A DNA stretch of 64,000 bases from an uncultured Actinomycetes bacterium (GCA_963826185.1 CAWGVY010000005.1:142391-206390); one strand, 5' to 3'; counted from the stretch's first letter, positions 21,447 to 34,650 are shown. Translations and numbers: made by a program. The notes: generated from the sequence alone by a model not told the origin.

Positions 21447-21477
21447 GTCTGGTGGCATGATAACCTGCCGACCAGAC
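21447..21477. promoter_or_regulatory. imperfect inverted repeat GTCTGGTGGCA-N8-TGCCGACCAGAC upstream of the potD-like operon
   Basis: Read directly: arms at 21447..21457 and 21466..21477 match 11/12 with one bulge. On the minus strand a TTGACT lies 18-19 nt upstream of TTATCAT. The spacer and right arm contain the GATAACCTGC box. Confidence 0.4.
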
Positions 21478-27658: not shown

Positions 27659-27675
27659 CAGATAACCTGCTGACC
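27659..27675. promoter_or_regulatory. CAGATAACCTGCTGACC box in the divergent VOC-GntR / E1-alpha promoter region
   Basis: Read directly. The 13-mer CAGATAACCTGCT is identical to 31491..31503. GATAACCTGC[C/T]GACC matches 21459..21473 at 14/15 positions. Confidence 0.4.
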
Positions 27676-29643: not shown

Positions 29644-30624
29644 TCAGCGGCGAGCAGCGACCGCGACCAGCGCGGCCTCGACCACGGCATCGGCCGTGAG
29701 GCCGTGGGTACGCGCCACGTAGGGGTTGGATCCGAACGAGCAGAACTCATCGCGGACCCCCACGGGCTGCACCGGGACCGACATGCCATCGGCGACCAGC
29801 GACTCCGCGACGGCGGAGAACAACCCCCCCATGATCGTGTGGTTCTCCGCCGTGACGAGCGTGCCGGTCTCTCGGGCGAACGACCGGATCCCTTCGGCGT
29901 CGAACGGCTTGACGGTGGAGATCTTCAACACGGCGGCCGATACCCCGCGCTCGGCCAAGGTCGCGGCCGCGTCGAGCGACTGACGCACCATGATGCTGCT
30001 CGCCACGATGCCCACGTCGGTGCCCTCCCGCAGGAGCTGGGCCGGGCCGATCTCGAAGCGATGCCCCGCCCGGTCGACGTCCCCGGTTTCCCGTCCCAGC
30101 AGTTGGCGCAGGTACACCGGCCCTTCGTAGTCGACCGCCGCTTCGGTCGCCTCCCGCATCTCATGGTTGTCGCACGGATCCAGCACGGTCATGTTCGGCA
30201 GTGCCCGCATGTGGGCGAGGTCGTCGATCCCCTGATGGGTGGGACCGAAGGTCGAGTAGATCCCGGGCAAGGCCGCGACGATCTTGACGTTCGCGCGGTT
30301 CAGCGCGCACTGGATCGCGATGAAGTCGAGGGCCCGCCGCGTGGCGAACACCGCGAACGTCGTCGCGACGGGAACGAAGCCGGCCTTCCACAGTCCGGTC
30401 GCCACCGAGATCAGCGTCTCCTCCGCCATCCCCACGTTGACGAACCGATCCGGGAAGCGCTGGGCGAAAGGGGTGAGACCGGTGATGCCGGCCACGTCAG
30501 CGGACAGGGTCACCACGTCCGATCGTCGTTCGCCGATGGCCAGCATCGCCTGTCCGAAGGCCCCGGACTTCTCGAGGGTGATCGGGTCCACGCTCGGGTG
30601 GACGGCTGGTGCGCCGGCGCTCAT
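29644..30624 (-). CDS. transketolase, C-terminal (pyrimidine-binding) subunit
   Basis: FPDRFVNVGMAEETLISVATGL, GPTHQGIDDLAHMRALPNMTV. Start at M40 of the track ORF. ATGA overlap with the N-terminal subunit gene. Confidence 0.9.
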   Translation of the reverse strand: MSAGAPAVHPSVDPITLEKSGAFGQAMLAIGERRSDVVTLSADVAGITGLTPFAQRFPDRFVNVGMAEETLISVATGLWKAGFVPVATTFAVFATRRALDFIAIQCALNRANVKIVAALPGIYSTFGPTHQGIDDLAHMRALPNMTVLDPCDNHEMREATEAAVDYEGPVYLRQLLGRETGDVDRAGHRFEIGPAQLLREGTDVGIVASSIMVRQSLDAAATLAERGVSAAVLKISTVKPFDAEGIRSFARETGTLVTAENHTIMGGLFSAVAESLVADGMSVPVQPVGVRDEFCSFGSNPYVARTHGLTADAVVEAALVAVAARR

Positions 30625-31460
30625 CCGAACTCCTCCAACTGCACGGCCACCGCGTTCCATTCGTCGTCGTCCACGCGAACGAAGTGATTGCGGTCGCGTT
30701 CCATGATCAAGGGGACGCCTTTCCCCAAGGTGGTGTGACAAACGATCGCCTTGGGCCGGCCGCTCACGTCCTGAGCTCGTTCGAAGGCTCCGAGGAGTTG
30801 CGCGATGTCATTGCCGTTGACCTCATCTGCCCACCAGCCGAACGCGCGCCACTTGTCGGCCAGGGGCTCGACCTCCAGCACCAGATCCCCGTCGGCTTGC
30901 GTCCGGTTCACGTCGATCACGCAGGTGAGGTTGTCCAGGCCCTGGTGTCCGGCGAACATGGCCGCCGCCCAGGTCGATCCCTCCTGCGTTTCTCCGTCGC
31001 TCATGATGTCGAAGATGCGTCCGGGATGGCCGCGGATCCGATAGCCGACCGCCAGGCCCGACGCCACGCCCAAGCCATGGGCGAGCGACCCGCCCGTCAG
31101 CTCGATGAAGGAGGGATGGCCATCGTGCGTCGAGGGGATCAGCTCGGACCCGTCGAGGGCGTAGGTGTCGAGATCGAAGCCGTCCAGATGCCCCGCCTCC
31201 GCAAGCGCGGCCCACAACCCGATCGAATAGTGGCCGGCCGAGAGGATGAACCGGTCCATCTCCGGAGATCGATCGACCGGGTCGTACCGCAGCTCGGACA
31301 GGAACAGGACCGCCAGGATGTCGGCGATGTCCAATCCCTGACCCACGTAGCCTTCGCCCTTGCCGGACGCCATCCTGACGACGTTGCGACGGATCTGCTT
31401 GGCTCGCGATCGGAGCTGCTCCGTCCGTTCGTCGGTGGCGGGCTCGGGACCGGCGGACAC
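30621..31460 (-). CDS. transketolase, N-terminal (TPP-binding) subunit
   Basis: GHYSIGLWAAL..., MSDGETQEGSTWAAAMFAGH, LTCVIDVNRTQADG. GTG start at 31460 follows GGAGGT. Confidence 0.9.
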   Translation of the reverse strand: MSAGPEPATDERTEQLRSRAKQIRRNVVRMASGKGEGYVGQGLDIADILAVLFLSELRYDPVDRSPEMDRFILSAGHYSIGLWAALAEAGHLDGFDLDTYALDGSELIPSTHDGHPSFIELTGGSLAHGLGVASGLAVGYRIRGHPGRIFDIMSDGETQEGSTWAAAMFAGHQGLDNLTCVIDVNRTQADGDLVLEVEPLADKWRAFGWWADEVNGNDIAQLLGAFERAQDVSGRPKAIVCHTTLGKGVPLIMERDRNHFVRVDDDEWNAVAVQLEEFG

Positions 31461-31487
31461 GCTACCTCCAGACGTCCGTGAGAAGGT

Positions 31488-31504
31488 GAGCAGATAACCT
31501 GCTC
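31488..31504. promoter_or_regulatory. perfect dyad GAGCAG-ATAAC-CTGCTC containing the CAGATAACCTGCT box, upstream of the transketolase operon
   Basis: Read directly. The 6-bp arms are perfectly complementary. Located 28-44 nt upstream of the GTG at 31460 (minus strand). Confidence 0.4.
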
Positions 31505-31615
31505 TCTGCGGAGTATGGTCGTCGAGTCGAAGACGCGTCAACCTGCGTGCAGTGCCGTACGTCGCTACCATCGGTGGCGACCGTTCCACCTATGACACAT
31601 TCGAGGAGGAGACAG

Positions 31616-31870
31616 ATGGCCGAGACCACCGGCACCGAGCTGCGCGACGAGGACATGGTGACCGAGAGGAGCGGCGCCACCGCGTCGAGCGAGGTTGGCC
31701 CCCGCGACACGGACGGCACCGACGGCGATTCCGATGGGACCGACGGCGACTCCGACGGCACCGACGGCGACTCCGACGGCACCGACGCCGACGGTACCGA
31801 CGGCGACGGCACCGACAGCACGGACGGCGACGGCACCGACGCGGACGGGACCGACGCGGCCATCGCGTGA
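31616..31870 (+). CDS. small acidic DGTD-repeat protein (84 aa)
   Basis: ATG at 31616 follows GAGGAGGAG. High third-position GC. MAETTGTELRDEDMVTERSGATASSEVGPRDTDGTDGDSDGTDGDSDGTDGDSDGTDADGTDGDGTDSTDGDGTDADGTDAAIA. Its stop overlaps the GTG of the next gene (GTGA). Confidence 0.6.
   Translation: MAETTGTELRDEDMVTERSGATASSEVGPRDTDGTDGDSDGTDGDSDGTDGDSDGTDADGTDGDGTDSTDGDGTDADGTDAAIA
31706..31855 (+). repeat. in-frame tandem repeat (15-21 nt units GGCACCGACGGCGAC[TCCGAC]) encoding DGTD(G/A)D(S) units
   Basis: Read directly: three near-identical 21-nt units followed by degenerate 15-24-nt units. Confidence 0.85.
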
Positions 31871-33066
31871 CGGTCGTCGCGACGGAGCGGGGAAGGACCA
31901 CCGACGGCGCCCTCGCCCGATGTACCGATGACCCCGATCGGTTCCGGGTTGAGGACTGGGGGCGTCGTGCCCGGAACTTCCCGTCGTCGGACCCGGCGGG
32001 CTTCGGCGATCTCCTCACCCTGGACGACGTCGACCGGTTCCTGACGACCACGGCGCTGCGAACGCCGTTCTTCCGGCTGGTGCGTGCCGGGGAGCGCATC
32101 CCGGAGGGGACCTACACCCGTTCGGGTCGCGCGGGCTCCCGCGACGTCTCGGGCATCGCTGATCCGGCGGCGGTCGCTCAGCTGTTCGAGGAGGGGGCCA
32201 CGATCGTGCTCCAGGCGATGCATCGATGGTCGGAGCCGGTCACCCGCTTCTGCCGCGATCTGGAGATGGAGCTCGGACACGCATGTCAGGTGAACGCCTA
32301 CATCACCCCCGCCGGTGCTCAGGGACTCGACCTGCACGAGGACGCGCACGACGTCTTCGTCCTGCAGGCGTTCGGCCGGAAGCGCTGGGAGGTGCACGGC
32401 GCACCGGCGGAGCCGGAACGTGGACCGTTCGACGAGGAGCTGGGGCCCGGCGACACGATCTACATGCCCACCGGCACGCCCCACGCCGCGTCGGCACAGC
32501 AGACGGTCTCGGGCCACCTCACGGTCGGCGTGCACGTCGCCACGTGGCGCGATGCTGTGGGTGGAGCCTGGACCGCCTTGCAGGCTGATCGGTCGTTGGA
32601 CGATCGGTTGCCCGTGGGCTGGCTTGACGACCCCCAGGAGCACGCAGCCGAGCTGGCCGCCCGGCTCCGATCGGCGGCCGACCGCCTCGCCGGGATGGAC
32701 GCCGGCGACATCCTCCGGCGTCGGGCCGATCGGTTCCTGTCCGCCCGTGCCCAGCTGGGGCGCGGTTCGCTCATCGAGCGTGCCTCGCCGATCGAGCTGG
32801 ACGATCGGACCGAGGTGCGTCGGCGTCCGGGTTCGGTGTGCGAGGTGCGGCTGCGAGGCGACGAGGTTTGGGTCCTGCTGGGCGATCGACGCATGCAGGT
32901 ACCGGCCTGGATCGAGCCCGCGATGCGCCTCATCGCCGGCCGCGACGTGCTCCAAGTAGGTGAGCTCGGTGAGGTCGTACCCGATGCGGCCAGCCGTGTG
33001 GTGCTGATCCGCCGGCTGATCCGGGAAGGGCTGCTCACGGCCGCCGCGGTATCAGGTCGCCGGTGA
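31867..33066 (+). CDS. JmjC/cupin Fe(II)/2-oxoglutarate oxygenase (bacterial ribosomal-oxygenase/YcfD-like)
   Basis: GTG at 31867. Facial-triad-like LHEDAHDVFVLQAFGRKRWEV (HxD) and MPTGTPHAA (distal His). C-terminal winged-helix-like tail. Confidence 0.75.
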   Translation: MTVVATERGRTTDGALARCTDDPDRFRVEDWGRRARNFPSSDPAGFGDLLTLDDVDRFLTTTALRTPFFRLVRAGERIPEGTYTRSGRAGSRDVSGIADPAAVAQLFEEGATIVLQAMHRWSEPVTRFCRDLEMELGHACQVNAYITPAGAQGLDLHEDAHDVFVLQAFGRKRWEVHGAPAEPERGPFDEELGPGDTIYMPTGTPHAASAQQTVSGHLTVGVHVATWRDAVGGAWTALQADRSLDDRLPVGWLDDPQEHAAELAARLRSAADRLAGMDAGDILRRRADRFLSARAQLGRGSLIERASPIELDDRTEVRRRPGSVCEVRLRGDEVWVLLGDRRMQVPAWIEPAMRLIAGRDVLQVGELGEVVPDAASRVVLIRRLIREGLLTAAAVSGRR

Positions 33067-33953
33067 CCGACCGAGACGACCGCTGTTCCCTGCGCAGCGA
33101 GGCGCTGGACGAACCGCTCGCCGGCACCGCTTCGACGATCCGGCGATGGCTGCTTATCGAGCATGCCGGTCCGTGGGGCCGTGACGGCCTGCTCGATGCC
33201 CGTTTGCCCGAGGGGCTCGGCGTCGAACTCCGCGCGTTGGAACGGCGGGCGGGGTGCCGAGTGTTGCTGATCCGACGTCCCGAGCGAGCGCCCGGCAGCG
33301 TCACCTGCTTCGCGGTCGACACCTCCCAGGCGTGGATCGGCTCGACCACGCTCGAGGGGATCGCCACGTCCCCTCAGCTCGACCCGGCCGATCGCGACGT
33401 GTTCCCCGGAACCGACGCGGGTCCCCTGGCCGTGGTGTGCACCCACGGACGTCGCGACATCTGCTGCGCCGAGCGGGGCCGTCCGCTGGCCGCGACCACC
33501 GCTTCGGTGTTTCCGGGCGCCGTGTGGGAGAGCACGCACGTCGGTGGCGATCGGTTCGCCGGCAACATGGTCCTGTTCCCGCACGGACTCGTGTACGGAC
33601 ACCTCGAGGCGGAGCGCGGAGCTGAGGTGCTTGCCGCCTACGCCGACGGACGCATCGTGCTCGACCGGTTCCGCGGGCGAACGAGCCATCCGATGCCGGC
33701 GCAAGCGGCCGACCACGCGGTGCGGAGCCGCTACGGGCTCGACGGCGTAGACGACGTGCAGCTGCTGATGACGGAGCGTGAGCGAGGACGAGCTCGGGTC
33801 CGACTGCAGCTGCCCGAACGAGAGGCCGAGGTCCACCTGCTGCGGCGAACCCTCCCCCGGATACGCCTCACGTGCTCCGCAACCGCCGCGGAGCCTCCCG
33901 TGACATGGGACGTGGCGTCGATCGCCGTCTCGAGCGAACGATCGTCCGACTGA
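33063..33953 (+). CDS. sucrase/ferredoxin-like (thioredoxin-like 2Fe-2S) family protein
   Basis: GTGA overlap with the JmjC gene. Hallmark VCTHGRRDICCAERGRP. Confidence 0.75.
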   Translation: MTDRDDRCSLRSEALDEPLAGTASTIRRWLLIEHAGPWGRDGLLDARLPEGLGVELRALERRAGCRVLLIRRPERAPGSVTCFAVDTSQAWIGSTTLEGIATSPQLDPADRDVFPGTDAGPLAVVCTHGRRDICCAERGRPLAATTASVFPGAVWESTHVGGDRFAGNMVLFPHGLVYGHLEAERGAEVLAAYADGRIVLDRFRGRTSHPMPAQAADHAVRSRYGLDGVDDVQLLMTERERGRARVRLQLPEREAEVHLLRRTLPRIRLTCSATAAEPPVTWDVASIAVSSERSSD

Positions 33954-33978: not shown

Positions 33979-34650
33979 GTGGCCGTGTCGCCCGAACGGA
34001 CCCAGGAGACCCCTCATCCACCCGCCACGCCGGAGTTCGGCCTCGTCCAGGTCGGCGGGCCGCCCCACGACTACCCGGAAGAGGGTTCCCTGCGCGTCCG
34101 GAAACTCGCCGTGGGTCCGTACGAGAACAACGTCTACGCGCTCGTCTCGGGCGATGAGGCCCTGATCGTGGACGGTGCCGACGAGGCCGATCGGATCCTG
34201 AGCCTCGTCGAGGGGCTGAAGGTAACCGGGATCGTGGAGACCCACAACCACGCCGACCACGTCCAGGCATTGTCGGCGTTGGTGGAGTCATTGGGGGTCC
34301 CCGTGTACGCGCATCCGGAGGATCCGCCGCCCGTGCCGTTCATCTCGCTCGCCGACGGTGAGCATCTGACGGTGGGCGGTGACACGGTCGCCGTGCTCCA
34401 CACGCCCGGTCACACCCCAGGCAGCGTGTGCTTCGCGACCGGGAGCTTCCTGTTCTCCGGAGACACGTTGTTCCCGGCGGGCCCGGGCAAGACCGGCGAT
34501 CCGGAACGGTTCGCGCGCATCATGGCGAGCCTCGACGGCCTGTTCGGAGCGCTCCCGGACACCACCAGGGTCTGTCCGGGACACGGGTTGGACACCACGA
34601 TCGGGCGTGAACGTCCGTACGTGGAGACCTGGCGCGCCCGCGGCTGGTAG
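33979..34650 (+). CDS. MBL-fold metallo-hydrolase (glyoxalase II-like)
   Basis: ETHNHADHVQAL (HxHxDH), HTPGHTPGS, CPGHG. Confidence 0.85.
   Translation: MAVSPERTQETPHPPATPEFGLVQVGGPPHDYPEEGSLRVRKLAVGPYENNVYALVSGDEALIVDGADEADRILSLVEGLKVTGIVETHNHADHVQALSALVESLGVPVYAHPEDPPPVPFISLADGEHLTVGGDTVAVLHTPGHTPGSVCFATGSFLFSGDTLFPAGPGKTGDPERFARIMASLDGLFGALPDTTRVCPGHGLDTTIGRERPYVETWRARGW

Follow-up and report, generated by a model that had tools for sequence, protein, structure and literature searches.

A small open reading frame (sORF) for an Asp-rich acidic peptide, a gene for a JmjC-type oxygenase and a gene for a sucrase/ferredoxin-like (Suc_Fer-like) Fe-S protein form a self-contained, co-conserved three-gene cassette in the window, the 64,000-nt stretch of DNA from an uncultured Actinomycetes bacterium analyzed here. 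We put at somewhat better than even (a probability of roughly 0.55) the reading that the peptide is a dedicated leader-plus-core substrate, hydroxylated by the oxygenase at several sites, most likely on Asp. The cassette looks like an undescribed combination of an enzyme with its own peptide substrate: no description of an acidic peptide/JmjC/Fe-S cassette was found in the literature searched, and a term search of a survey of bacterial JmjC neighborhoods (Iyer et al., 2010; PMC2938197) found no mention of it.

All three genes lie on the plus strand, with the sORF at 31616-31870, the JmjC gene at 31867-33066 (GTG start, 399 aa) and the Suc_Fer-like gene at 33063-33953 (GTG start, 296 aa). The first-pass annotation had described three frames chained by GTGA overlaps, a strong ribosome-binding site and an acidic core written by DNA repeats, and each of these features holds. 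Both overlaps, at the sORF stop/JmjC start (31867-31870) and at the JmjC stop/Suc_Fer-like start (33063-33066), can be read directly in the sequence, indicating that the sORF is, by prediction, translationally coupled with the JmjC and Suc_Fer-like genes; GTGA recurs at the sORF/JmjC junction in 22 of 71 orthologous loci, and in 20 of these 22 it is in frame with the JmjC gene. The Shine-Dalgarno sequence GAGGAGGAG (31603-31611, plus strand) ends 4 nt upstream of the sORF ATG, and most orthologous loci have AGGAGG or GAGGAG no more than 20 nt from the sORF start. The product, an acidic, disordered-type peptide of 84 aa that reads MAETTGTELRDEDMVTERSGATASSEVGPRDTDGTDGDSDGTDGDS...DGTDAAIA, has a recognition-like motif in its N-terminal part and, after it, a repeat core rich in Asp. 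Tandem Repeats Finder placed the repeats encoding the D-G-T-D-(G/A)-D-(S) core, with periods of 15, 21 and 39 nt, at 31704-31856 (plus strand); the 21-nt period covers 31704-31792 with 4.2 copies and 86% matches, and those of 15 and 39 nt extend up to 31856. Upstream of the sORFs, no IdeR or Zur box was detected, the best matches being no better than those within the JmjC gene, and no shared motif was found except the Shine-Dalgarno sequence and -10-like TAnnnT elements. The GATAACCTGC box 5' of the sORF in the window is missing from all 102 other loci.

The synteny check suggested with the original proposal came out in its favor, as orthologous JmjC genes across Actinomycetota are preceded, in frame, by the acidic repeat sORF. 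In every readable locus from related genomes (n = about 19) the sORF stop lies at or close to the JmjC start, and a scan of public genomes found an acidic, Asp-rich sORF immediately before the JmjC gene in 77 of the 78 loci that could be evaluated, with one further locus, N-masked, standing outside that number; in these loci the pairing extends down to a JmjC identity of 38%. Of the 77, 71 are intact by strict criteria; in the remainder the sORF runs into a contig end, carries a frameshift (in nanopore MAGs) or is less acidic. The pairing is also present in loci L105-L112, and cassettes at 34-40% JmjC identity retain it with different cores. About 100 loci agree in sORF frame, start context, motif and acidic core. 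The three-gene arrangement occurs in hundreds of other actinobacterial species. Its distribution is patchy: 12 of 24 congeneric species carry it, as do 67 of 396 good genomes from the phylum (about one in six sampled Actinomycetota). When all neighboring ORFs at 80 loci were clustered, only the sORF, JmjC and Suc_Fer genes proved to be conserved; no leader peptidase, protease or exporter, and no further tailoring gene, was conserved beside the cassette at these loci. The presence and absence of the JmjC and Suc_Fer genes are identical across 41 related genomes, save for one weak paralogue, and the Suc_Fer gene is missing beside several more distant cassettes. The Fe-S protein, presented in the first-pass annotation as the partner of the other two, is hence a usual partner but not a universal one. 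The source genome contains no second JmjC_2 gene and no second peptide of the sORF kind.

The second gene (31867-33066, plus strand) encodes a JmjC_2/ROX-type Fe(II)/2-oxoglutarate (2OG) oxygenase made up of a JmjC barrel, a helical domain and a C-terminal winged-helix domain, as judged from Pfam, AlphaFold2 and Foldseek. Its early assignment to the JmjC enzymes agrees with a match to PF08007 (JmjC_2; E = 1.4e-19, 70.3 bits against a cut-off of 22). The AlphaFold2 model (mean pLDDT 84.6) has the three-domain ROX fold, and its best Foldseek matches over the full length were NO66, MINA53 and then YcfD, with more than 430 columns aligned with NO66 and MINA53 (E = 6e-24 to 1e-18) and an E-value of about 1e-16 for YcfD. 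A profile search of PDB sequences likewise returned NO66 (2e-29), MINA53 (4e-26) and YcfD (2e-13). Clustering with the uL16-specific RoxA/YcfD enzymes, which had been raised as a finding that would count against the proposal, is not seen, NO66 and MINA53 being nearer by both profile and Foldseek. Judged by sequence, the catalytic residues are intact, with H157, D159, K172, H217 and T219 invariant in 13 orthologues. The HxD metal-binding motif His157-Glu-Asp159 (codons 32335-32343, plus strand) aligns with the HxD of NO66, and Lys172 (32380-32382), the predicted binder of the 2OG C5 carboxylate, aligns with the Lys of NO66 'EGRKLW', which we take from NO66 structures to bind 2OG. His217-Leu-Thr219 (32515-32523), which supplies the predicted distal metal-binding His and an HxT motif, aligns with NO66 'HLT'; HxT is described as typical of bacterial proteins near eukaryotic MINA/NO66 (PMC2938197).

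The C-terminal winged-helix domain (residues 311-392, codons 32797-33042, plus strand), delimited by the secondary structure of the model, is the only basic part of the enzyme, with a median pI of 9.9 compared with 5.7 for the whole protein, whose net charge is about -10. This domain is possibly a docking site for the acidic peptide. As regards a peptide-recognition (RRE) domain, the C-terminal part has a basic winged-helix-like fold in the predicted structure, and RRE-like domains fused to PF08007 are on record (PMC12710340). Global charge complementarity between enzyme and peptide was ruled out, the enzyme being acidic and basic in its winged-helix domain only.

The peptide has the build expected of a leader followed by a core. 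Its leader-like motif, L9-R-D-E-D-M-V-T16 (codons 31640-31663, plus strand), follows the family consensus L-x-D-[ED]-D-[IM]-x-T, and conservation across 72 sORFs is high (L 94%, D 97%, D 83%, I 82% plus M 15%, T 94%). The motif is absent in a few distant cassettes (loci L121, L123 and L128). A parallel loss of the winged helix from motif-less cassettes was ruled out, as their enzymes are equally long and similar at the C-terminus. The sORF products range from 53 to 126 aa, and their cores are hypervariable and differ between clades, with a family composition of 34% D, 17% T, 14% G, 10% A and 9% S and with no C, W or Y. Because the cores of distant cassettes are very unlike each other, for example EGPADGGSNPGGHDGGADGTA and PTEDDENLDAPGEHSQDTGDE, a single fixed modification site is not obvious. 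Asp alone is abundant in all of the cores (minimum fraction 0.27), with Thr falling to 0.02 and Gly to 0, and the x of the core DGxD may be T, V, S, G, A, K or R. As in RiPP-type systems, a small gene adjoins the gene for a modifying enzyme and is co-conserved with it, and a conserved leader precedes a variable core; a peptidase and/or exporter in the cluster, another mark of such systems, was not found at the 80 loci. No signal peptide is linked to the cassette.

The third gene (33063-33953, plus strand) encodes a sucrase/ferredoxin-like protein of 296 aa, as first proposed, with a match to PF06999 (Suc_Fer-like; E = 6.3e-17, 62.7 bits against a cut-off of 34.9). In its AlphaFold2 model (pLDDT 94.2), a thioredoxin-like [2Fe-2S] ferredoxin core carries extra N- and C-terminal parts; the core superposes on A. 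vinelandii FeSI and the Aquifex thioredoxin-like ferredoxin (5abr, 1m2a, 1m2b) with target-normalized TM-scores of 0.67-0.72, and the additional domains have no solved relative. Both PF06999 and the thioredoxin-like ferredoxin fold are held in common with the yeast Suc_Fer-like proteins Apd1 and Aim32, and the cassette protein has a Cys-x8-Cys pair and an H-x-G-G motif that correspond to the Cys2His2 ligands of Apd1, which we take from the Apd1/Aim32 literature to be its cluster ligands. Residues C8, C126, C134, C135, H159 and C271 are invariant. Among these, C126, C135 and H159 are candidate cluster ligands; the fourth position, unlike the second His of HxGGH in Apd1/Aim32, is an Asp (D163, 97% conserved). 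The extra invariant cysteines C8, C134 and C271, which also distinguish the cassette protein from Apd1/Aim32, could act as substitute ligands. No link of the Suc_Fer-like family to a JmjC enzyme was described in the literature searched.

That the repeat protein is the dedicated substrate of the oxygenase, as the first-pass annotation had supposed, is the best-supported reading, given the synteny and the affinity of the enzyme to relatives other than RoxA. The companion idea that Thr is a target does not stand: Thr is not conserved in the core, and Asp, not Thr, is therefore the candidate if a core residue is hydroxylated. On the dedicated-substrate reading, the oxygenase would bind the conserved peptide motif, possibly via the basic winged-helix domain, and would hydroxylate the repeat core at many sites. 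The most likely chemistry would be C-3 (beta) hydroxylation of Asp, which is favored because every characterized ROX enzyme, and FIH, to the best of our knowledge hydroxylates side-chain C-3. Precedents for 2OG-dependent C-3 hydroxylation of Asp or Asn are FIH (a JmjC enzyme acting on ankyrin Asn/Asp/His), AspH (EGF domains) and CinX (Asp15 of cinnamycin). FIH is a distant structural match to the cassette enzyme (Foldseek E about 1e-6, query-normalized TM-score 0.35), AspH and CinX belong to other 2OG-oxygenase families, and none of the three is known to have a dedicated multi-repeat substrate. The product would be a polyanionic, hydroxy-Asp-rich peptide retained in the cell, an intracellular location being suggested by the lack of any signal peptide, protease or exporter associated with the cassette. 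The Fe-S protein may serve as an optional redox helper, for example by re-reducing the oxygenase iron; we know of no role for Suc_Fer-like proteins in 2OG-oxygenase chemistry.

Known ROX substrates are Arg or His residues in ribosomal proteins, and two observations run against a substrate role for the peptide: the known targets are basic proteins and not Asp in an acidic peptide, and the enzyme is itself acidic overall, with only the winged-helix domain basic. The peptide might instead be a partner that is not modified: it could inhibit the enzyme or act as a pseudosubstrate, help it as a chaperone to assemble or stay soluble, or supply or buffer Fe(II) or Ca(II). The real substrate would then be something else, for example a ribosomal protein, as for NO66, MINA53 and YcfD. 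The ROX architecture and catalytic residues of the enzyme are complete, all characterized members of the family act on ribosomal proteins, and the overall acidity of the enzyme fits a basic protein substrate more readily than it fits an acidic one. Moreover, a conserved docking motif would be equally expected of a regulator, and Asp-rich D-x-D-G-type repeats resemble cation-binding loops. We nevertheless regard such a partner as unlikely. The patchy occurrence of the cassette, in half of the sampled species of the genus and 67 of 396 genomes of the phylum, speaks against it, and a strict 1:1 pairing between the enzyme gene and a rapidly evolving repeat peptide is what a precursor and its maturase typically show; furthermore, no described ROX enzyme known to us requires such a peptide partner.

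The peptide could also be the substrate of a chemistry other than Asp side-chain hydroxylation, namely hydroxylation at the C-alpha of Gly, Ala or Ser with ensuing cleavage of the backbone to small fragments, modification of another residue, or cross-linking/macrocyclization. This is a doubtful alternative, since the characterized ROX enzymes and FIH all hydroxylate side-chain C-3 and neither a peptidase nor a further tailoring gene is conserved nearby. In its favor, the residue after a core Asp is nearly always small (G 452, A 282, S 251, T 217), and 2OG-dependent macrocyclization is reported in RiPPs (a work cited in PMC12710340, its reference 45). The oxidation of Phe to Tyr by CzlI likewise indicates that JmjC enzymes are capable of unusual peptide oxidations.

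Within the dedicated-substrate reading, a speculative and rather improbable extension is that the product is a ribosomally encoded poly-(3-hydroxy-Asp) peptide that stays in the cell and, by chelating Fe(III) or Ca(II), acts as a siderophore-like metal buffer. The NO66-like oxygenase would install alpha-hydroxy-carboxylate ligands in an O2-, iron- and 2OG-dependent manner, and the [2Fe-2S] protein would reduce bound iron for its release. A comparable idea is embodied by the bufferins, ribosomal peptide metallophores matured by MNIO enzymes (cited in PMC12710340, its reference 73). In both cases an iron enzyme would modify a ribosomal peptide that serves the metal handling of its producer and is not an antibiotic, the metal role being a guess for the cassette, as is the metal- or mineral-binding product supposed in the first-pass annotation; the bufferins differ in enzyme family, in their Cys-derived ligands and in their periplasmic export.

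The case for the sORF as a gene rests on conservation and not on the open frame. An 84-codon open frame in this high-GC DNA carries little weight by itself; none of the three frames is interrupted within the repeat, and that of the JmjC gene stays open upstream as far as 31552. The coding-type GC3 reported for the sORF was reproduced across 72 orthologous sORFs, at 0.88 in frame versus 0.67 and 0.56 in the other two frames. Synonymous codons vary at conserved motif residues (Leu: CTG 35, CTC 27, TTG 5; Thr: ACC 42, ACG 26), and repeat number differs between close relatives with the frame kept, as in loci L024 and L025 (82 aa versus 59 aa). The pN/pS ratio around the motif, over all sORF pairs, was 0.84 in frame versus 1.11 and 1.24 out of frame, values that are saturated (pS 0.50) and weakly informative; coding evidence was, pS being saturated, taken from per-position codon tables in place of pN/pS. 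The sORF is accordingly read here, on its sequence features, as a predicted real small protein with a precursor-peptide build. NCBIfam has no model for the sORF, JmjC or Suc_Fer-like proteins and Pfam has none for the peptide, and the database homologues of the sORF product are all named 'hypothetical protein' and have no Pfam domain. The exact 84-aa product is absent from a collection of 15 billion proteins, and exact look-up of seven sORF products there returned one, which has no name. In the source genome, as in most others, gene callers miss the peptide gene; when they do report it, its label is 'hypothetical protein'.

It is very unlikely that the sORF is only a translated regulatory leader that senses the supply of Asp/Thr/Gly codons and sets oxygenase translation through the stop/start overlap, its product having no function. 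That overlap (GTGA here and in 22 of 71 loci) and the extreme bias toward a single amino acid, a trait of classical attenuator leader peptides, would fit such a role. A codon sensor, however, needs no motif kept as amino acids across classes of Actinomycetota, and a peptide of 53-126 aa is far longer than attenuator leaders; in addition, there is no terminator-like hairpin between the genes of the cassette, and the downstream genes encode an oxygenase and an Fe-S protein and not amino-acid biosynthesis. A chance open frame in GC-rich repeat DNA, to which the three open frames, the JmjC frame open back to 31552 and the missing database entry might point, is effectively refuted: about 100 loci, with JmjC identities as low as 34%, share the frame, the start context, the motif and the acidic core, and GC3 reaches 0.88 in the sORF frame only.

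If the peptide is taken as the dedicated substrate, the closest relatives of the system are the ROX enzymes (NO66/RIOX1, MINA53/RIOX2, and YcfD/RoxA of E. coli and Rhodothermus), with which the cassette enzyme has in common PF08007, the three-domain fold, the HxD...H triad, a basic 2OG-binding residue 15 positions past the first His and the HxT motif. It is, however, only 19-23% identical to NO66, MINA53 and YcfD. Whereas the ROX substrates are Arg/His in ribosomal proteins encoded elsewhere in the genome, the cassette enzyme is encoded behind its own acidic repeat peptide, usually upstream of an Fe-S protein gene, and is patchily distributed. The statement in the first-pass annotation that no system of this kind had been described remains valid for the cassette in the literature searched, but the general idea has precedent. 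CzlI is a JmjC-type hydroxylase of the curacozole RiPP pathway that converts Phe to Tyr on the precursor peptide (PMC11575548), and BipG is a JmjC-type ornithine hydroxylase of the biphenomycin pathway that acts on a ribosomal precursor peptide (PMC12707348). The likeness consists of a JmjC-type Fe(II)/2OG enzyme and a precursor peptide encoded in the same cluster, here predicted from the genes. In contrast to the cassette, CzlI and BipG perform tailoring steps in large clusters with cyclases, proteases and transporters, whose products are small exported antibiotics; the cassette has only two or three genes and a polyanionic repeat of 53-126 aa, with no sign of cleavage or export. CzlI moreover resembles YxbC and not NO66, whereas the cassette enzyme is NO66-like.

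For annotation, the finding brings to light a peptide gene that gene callers commonly overlook. If the substrate reading is true, the cassette would constitute a minimal peptide pathway, with a long polyanionic repeat, probably intracellular, in place of a small exported antibiotic; its two or three genes make it a simple enough system for studying ROX substrate recognition. ROX enzymes are known only as modifiers of ribosomal proteins, and the family would gain a second kind of substrate, the cassette oxygenase being the first ROX-family enzyme with a dedicated non-ribosomal substrate. The cassette enzymes are the bacterial clade nearest to human NO66 and MINA53, and they would then provide a bacterial relative that informs the origin of these eukaryotic enzymes.

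The small open reading frame (sORF) at 31616-31870 (+) encodes an 84-aa acidic peptide in which about 30 ordinary residues are followed by some 50 residues of D-G-T-D-(G/A)-D-(S) units, written by DNA tandem repeats with units of 21, 15, and 39 nt (31704-31856, +; Tandem Repeats Finder). A Shine-Dalgarno sequence, GAGGAGGAG, lies 4 nt 5' of its ATG. The sORF stop overlaps the GTG start (31867) of a 399-aa ORF (31867-33066, +) within a GTGA, and a second GTGA (33063-33066) joins the stop of that gene to the start of a 296-aa ORF (33063-33953, +). Sequence inspection and Tandem Repeats Finder thus recovered the acidic repeat ORF, both overlaps, the DNA repeats, and the ribosome-binding site as described in the first-pass annotation, whose JmjC and sucrase/ferredoxin-like assignments for the second and third genes also hold (PF08007 JmjC_2, E 1.4e-19; PF06999 Suc_Fer-like, E 6.3e-17). 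The peptide itself has no match in Pfam or NCBIfam, and every one of its database homologues is a domainless "hypothetical protein". The protein collection contains the oxygenase, called at 399 aa, and lacks the window's sORF product. The JmjC frame is open for 315 nt 5' of its GTG (31552-31866), overlapping the sORF in another frame and reading as Arg-rich nonsense of the RRHRRR type; gene callers could lengthen the oxygenase over this stretch, masking the sORF.

None of the three frames has a stop codon across the repeat in the window, and with DNA so GC-rich, open reading over such a length is in itself no evidence for a gene. The JmjC gene was found in 19 of 41 same-order genomes, including 12 of the 24 other species of the genus. 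At every related-genome locus among those listed, an acidic D/T/G-rich ORF runs up to the JmjC start, also where JmjC identity is only 42-49%, and in related genomes a Suc_Fer-like gene lies 3' of the JmjC gene. Scanning public species genomes with the JmjC alignment yielded at least 597 related loci. The best 80, which were examined, come from unclassified Actinomycetota metagenome-assembled genomes (MAGs), Acidimicrobiia, Nitriliruptoraceae, Egibacteraceae, Nocardioides, Halosaccharopolyspora, Streptosporangiaceae, and a few MAGs labelled Acidobacteriota. Enough upstream DNA for evaluation was present at 78, and the sORF was intact under strict criteria at 71 of these; one further sORF is slightly less acidic, another is truncated at a contig end, one is N-masked, and four, all in long-read MAGs, have the repeats with the N-terminus in another frame. 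Such shifted N-termini (seen in the long-read loci L046, L052, L059, L067, and L110) seem to reflect indel errors within the repeat DNA and not true loss. The synteny proposed earlier as a check is therefore found, in related genomes and public loci alike.

Across orthologous loci, the sORF product measures 53-126 aa (median 78) and carries, near its N-terminus, the motif L-x-D-[ED]-D-[IM]-x-T, in which L is conserved at 94%, D at 97%, D at 83%, I at 82%, and T at 94%. Codons at conserved motif residues vary synonymously (Leu: CTG 35, CTC 27, TTG 5; Thr: ACC 42, ACG 26), GC3 is 0.88 in the sORF frame only, and repeat number varies among close relatives with the frame kept (for example, 82 vs 59 aa). 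Together, these features are evidence for protein-level selection; crude pN/pS across all sORF pairs was saturated and weakly informative. On comparative sequence grounds, the small ORF is judged real. In its Asp-rich tail, or core, Asp makes up 34%, ahead of Thr (17%), Gly (14%), Ala (10%), and Ser (9%); Cys, Trp, and Tyr do not occur.

To find how far the association reaches, 20 further distant JmjC homologues were retrieved and inspected. At 34-40% JmjC identity, most of these loci have a repeat sORF with a different core: PTEDDENLDAPGEHSQDTGDE at loci with no nearby Suc_Fer gene (L113, L114, L118), EGPADGGSNPGGHDGGADGTA in genomes of 6-7 Mb (L116, L117, L119, L120, L129), and DADAADADASD (L132). 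Asp is the sole residue common to all cores, and the position directly after it almost always holds a small residue. The motif, as [LI]-x-D-[DE]-D-[IM]-x-[TS], is kept in most distant loci; it is missing from L121, L123, and L128, where the enzyme's C-terminal domain is nevertheless present and unchanged in length. No clear repeat was seen at L122 (34% identity), and four homologues at 27-33% identity, with neither sORF nor Suc_Fer gene, mark the boundary of the association. Since distant loci keep the sORF while some lack Suc_Fer, the stable pair is peptide and oxygenase, the Fe-S protein (the Suc_Fer-like product) being usual, not obligatory.

Clustering all GC3-filtered ORFs of the 80 loci returned just three conserved families, those of JmjC, Suc_Fer-like, and the sORF; proteases, transporters, regulators, and further tailoring enzymes did not recur among the clustered ORFs. 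Presence or absence of JmjC coincides with that of Suc_Fer in the 41 related genomes, save for one weak paralogue. In an even sample of the phylum, homologues occur in 67/396 high-quality genomes and 48/253 genera; the cassette is thus widespread yet patchy, a distribution that marks an accessory function. The JmjC_2 gene and this type of peptide each occur once in this genome. Two related genomes depart from the intact arrangement: G013 has two cassette copies (L009, L020, L023), one with JmjC and Suc_Fer broken by frame changes, and G018 (L013, L021) has an in-frame TGA within the JmjC gene; either decay of the copies or faulty assembly could account for this. In the window, the cassette is flanked by a divergent split transketolase upstream (N and pyrimidine/C subunits; 29644-31589, −) and an MBL-fold hydrolase gene (33979-34650, +), neither kept elsewhere. 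The latter, on the strand of the cassette, begins 26 nt beyond the Suc_Fer stop, and here it may share a transcript with the cassette.

A search of the upstream DNA found no IdeR box, Zur box, or other shared operator that would tie the cassette to metal regulation. The 10-mer GATAACCTGC has three exact copies in the window (within 31488-31504, at 21459-21468, and at 27661-27670), one of them in the dyad GAGCAGATAACCTGCTC, which precedes the sORF start by 113 nt. All 102 other loci compared lack this element, which places it outside the conserved cassette; it may represent a local operator that the cassette here shares with the amine-utilisation and E1 operons. The sORF stop reads CTGA at 33 of 71 loci, among them L053, L055, L060, L066, L070, and others of the Acidimicrobiia type. 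At 16 the CTG is in the JmjC frame and the JmjC gene has no nearby ATG, GTG, or TTG, which is compatible with translational restart at CTG, but these 16 make up only about half of the CTGA loci.

The AlphaFold2 model of the oxygenase (pLDDT 84.6) comprises a JmjC barrel, a helical domain, and a C-terminal winged helix, the domain order of the ribosomal oxygenases (ROX) NO66, MINA53, and YcfD/RoxA, although identity to NO66 is only 21-23%. Foldseek ranked NO66 first (E 6e-24), followed by MINA53, YcfD (~1e-16), and YxbC, with FIH and JMJD5 far behind; a sequence-profile search gave the same order (NO66 2e-29, MINA53 4e-26, YcfD 2e-13). With NO66 and MINA53 above YcfD in both searches, a RoxA orthologue is ruled out, and the enzyme does not cluster with the uL16-specific RoxA group; tight clustering there, with modification of the ribosome alone, is what the first-pass annotation had named as fatal to its proposal. 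Invariant residues H157, D159, K172, H217, and T219 line up with the metal and 2-oxoglutarate ligands of NO66, for which reason the enzyme should be active. Iyer et al. (PMC2938197) give the HxT motif as typical of bacterial proteins nearest eukaryotic MINA/NO66. The oxygenase is acidic overall (median pI 5.7), and its winged-helix domain alone is basic (pI 9.9).

The Fe-S protein was modeled with high confidence (pLDDT 94.2), and its core matches thioredoxin-like [2Fe-2S] ferredoxins (target-normalised TM-score 0.67-0.72); the structure search returned no solved relative for its N- and C-terminal parts. C126, C135, and H159 are invariant at predicted cluster-ligand positions, and C8, C134, and C271 are invariant too. 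The fourth ligand position is Asp163, in place of the His of yeast Apd1. As a guess, the protein keeps the enzyme iron reduced or handles product-bound metal.

The cassette thus encodes a peptide that, by its pattern of conservation, is translated and co-conserved, with a leader-like motif, a variable Asp-rich core, and tight translational linkage to an oxygenase with intact catalytic residues and an Fe-S-type protein. In the proposed mechanism, the oxygenase would dock on the peptide motif, perhaps via its winged helix, which is basic; PMC12710340 reports RRE-like domains in fusion with PF08007. The enzyme would then hydroxylate the core many times, most likely at Asp C-3: no residue other than Asp is constant in the core, and, to our knowledge, all characterised ROX enzymes, and also FIH, act on side-chain C-3. 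Thr, the other target suggested at first, is not conserved in the core. Neither signal peptide, protease, nor exporter accompanies the cassette, suggesting that the product would stay intracellular.

Alternatively, the peptide could regulate the enzyme, act as its pseudosubstrate, or supply it with metal, while the true target of the enzyme would be a ribosomal protein, as for the ROX proteins that it resembles; we consider this unlikely. Slightly less likely still, the peptide would be a substrate for different chemistry, Asp C-3 being the site favoured here. A pure regulatory leader ORF is very improbable and a chance ORF extremely so, both being contradicted by the protein-level conservation. 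The reading of the peptide as dedicated substrate of the oxygenase is partly supported: its genomic predictions are borne out, and the chemistry is a proposal.

JmjC hydroxylation of ribosomal precursor peptides has been described for CzlI in curacozole (PMC11575548) and BipG in biphenomycin (PMC12707348), which, in contrast to this cassette, are tailoring steps within large antibiotic clusters. The open-access literature searched describes neither an acidic repeat peptide coupled to a ROX-type enzyme nor the JmjC/Suc_Fer pair. The pairing of an acidic repeat with a ROX-type oxygenase would add a further form to a known kind of system, in which a ribosomal peptide is the dedicated substrate of one enzyme.
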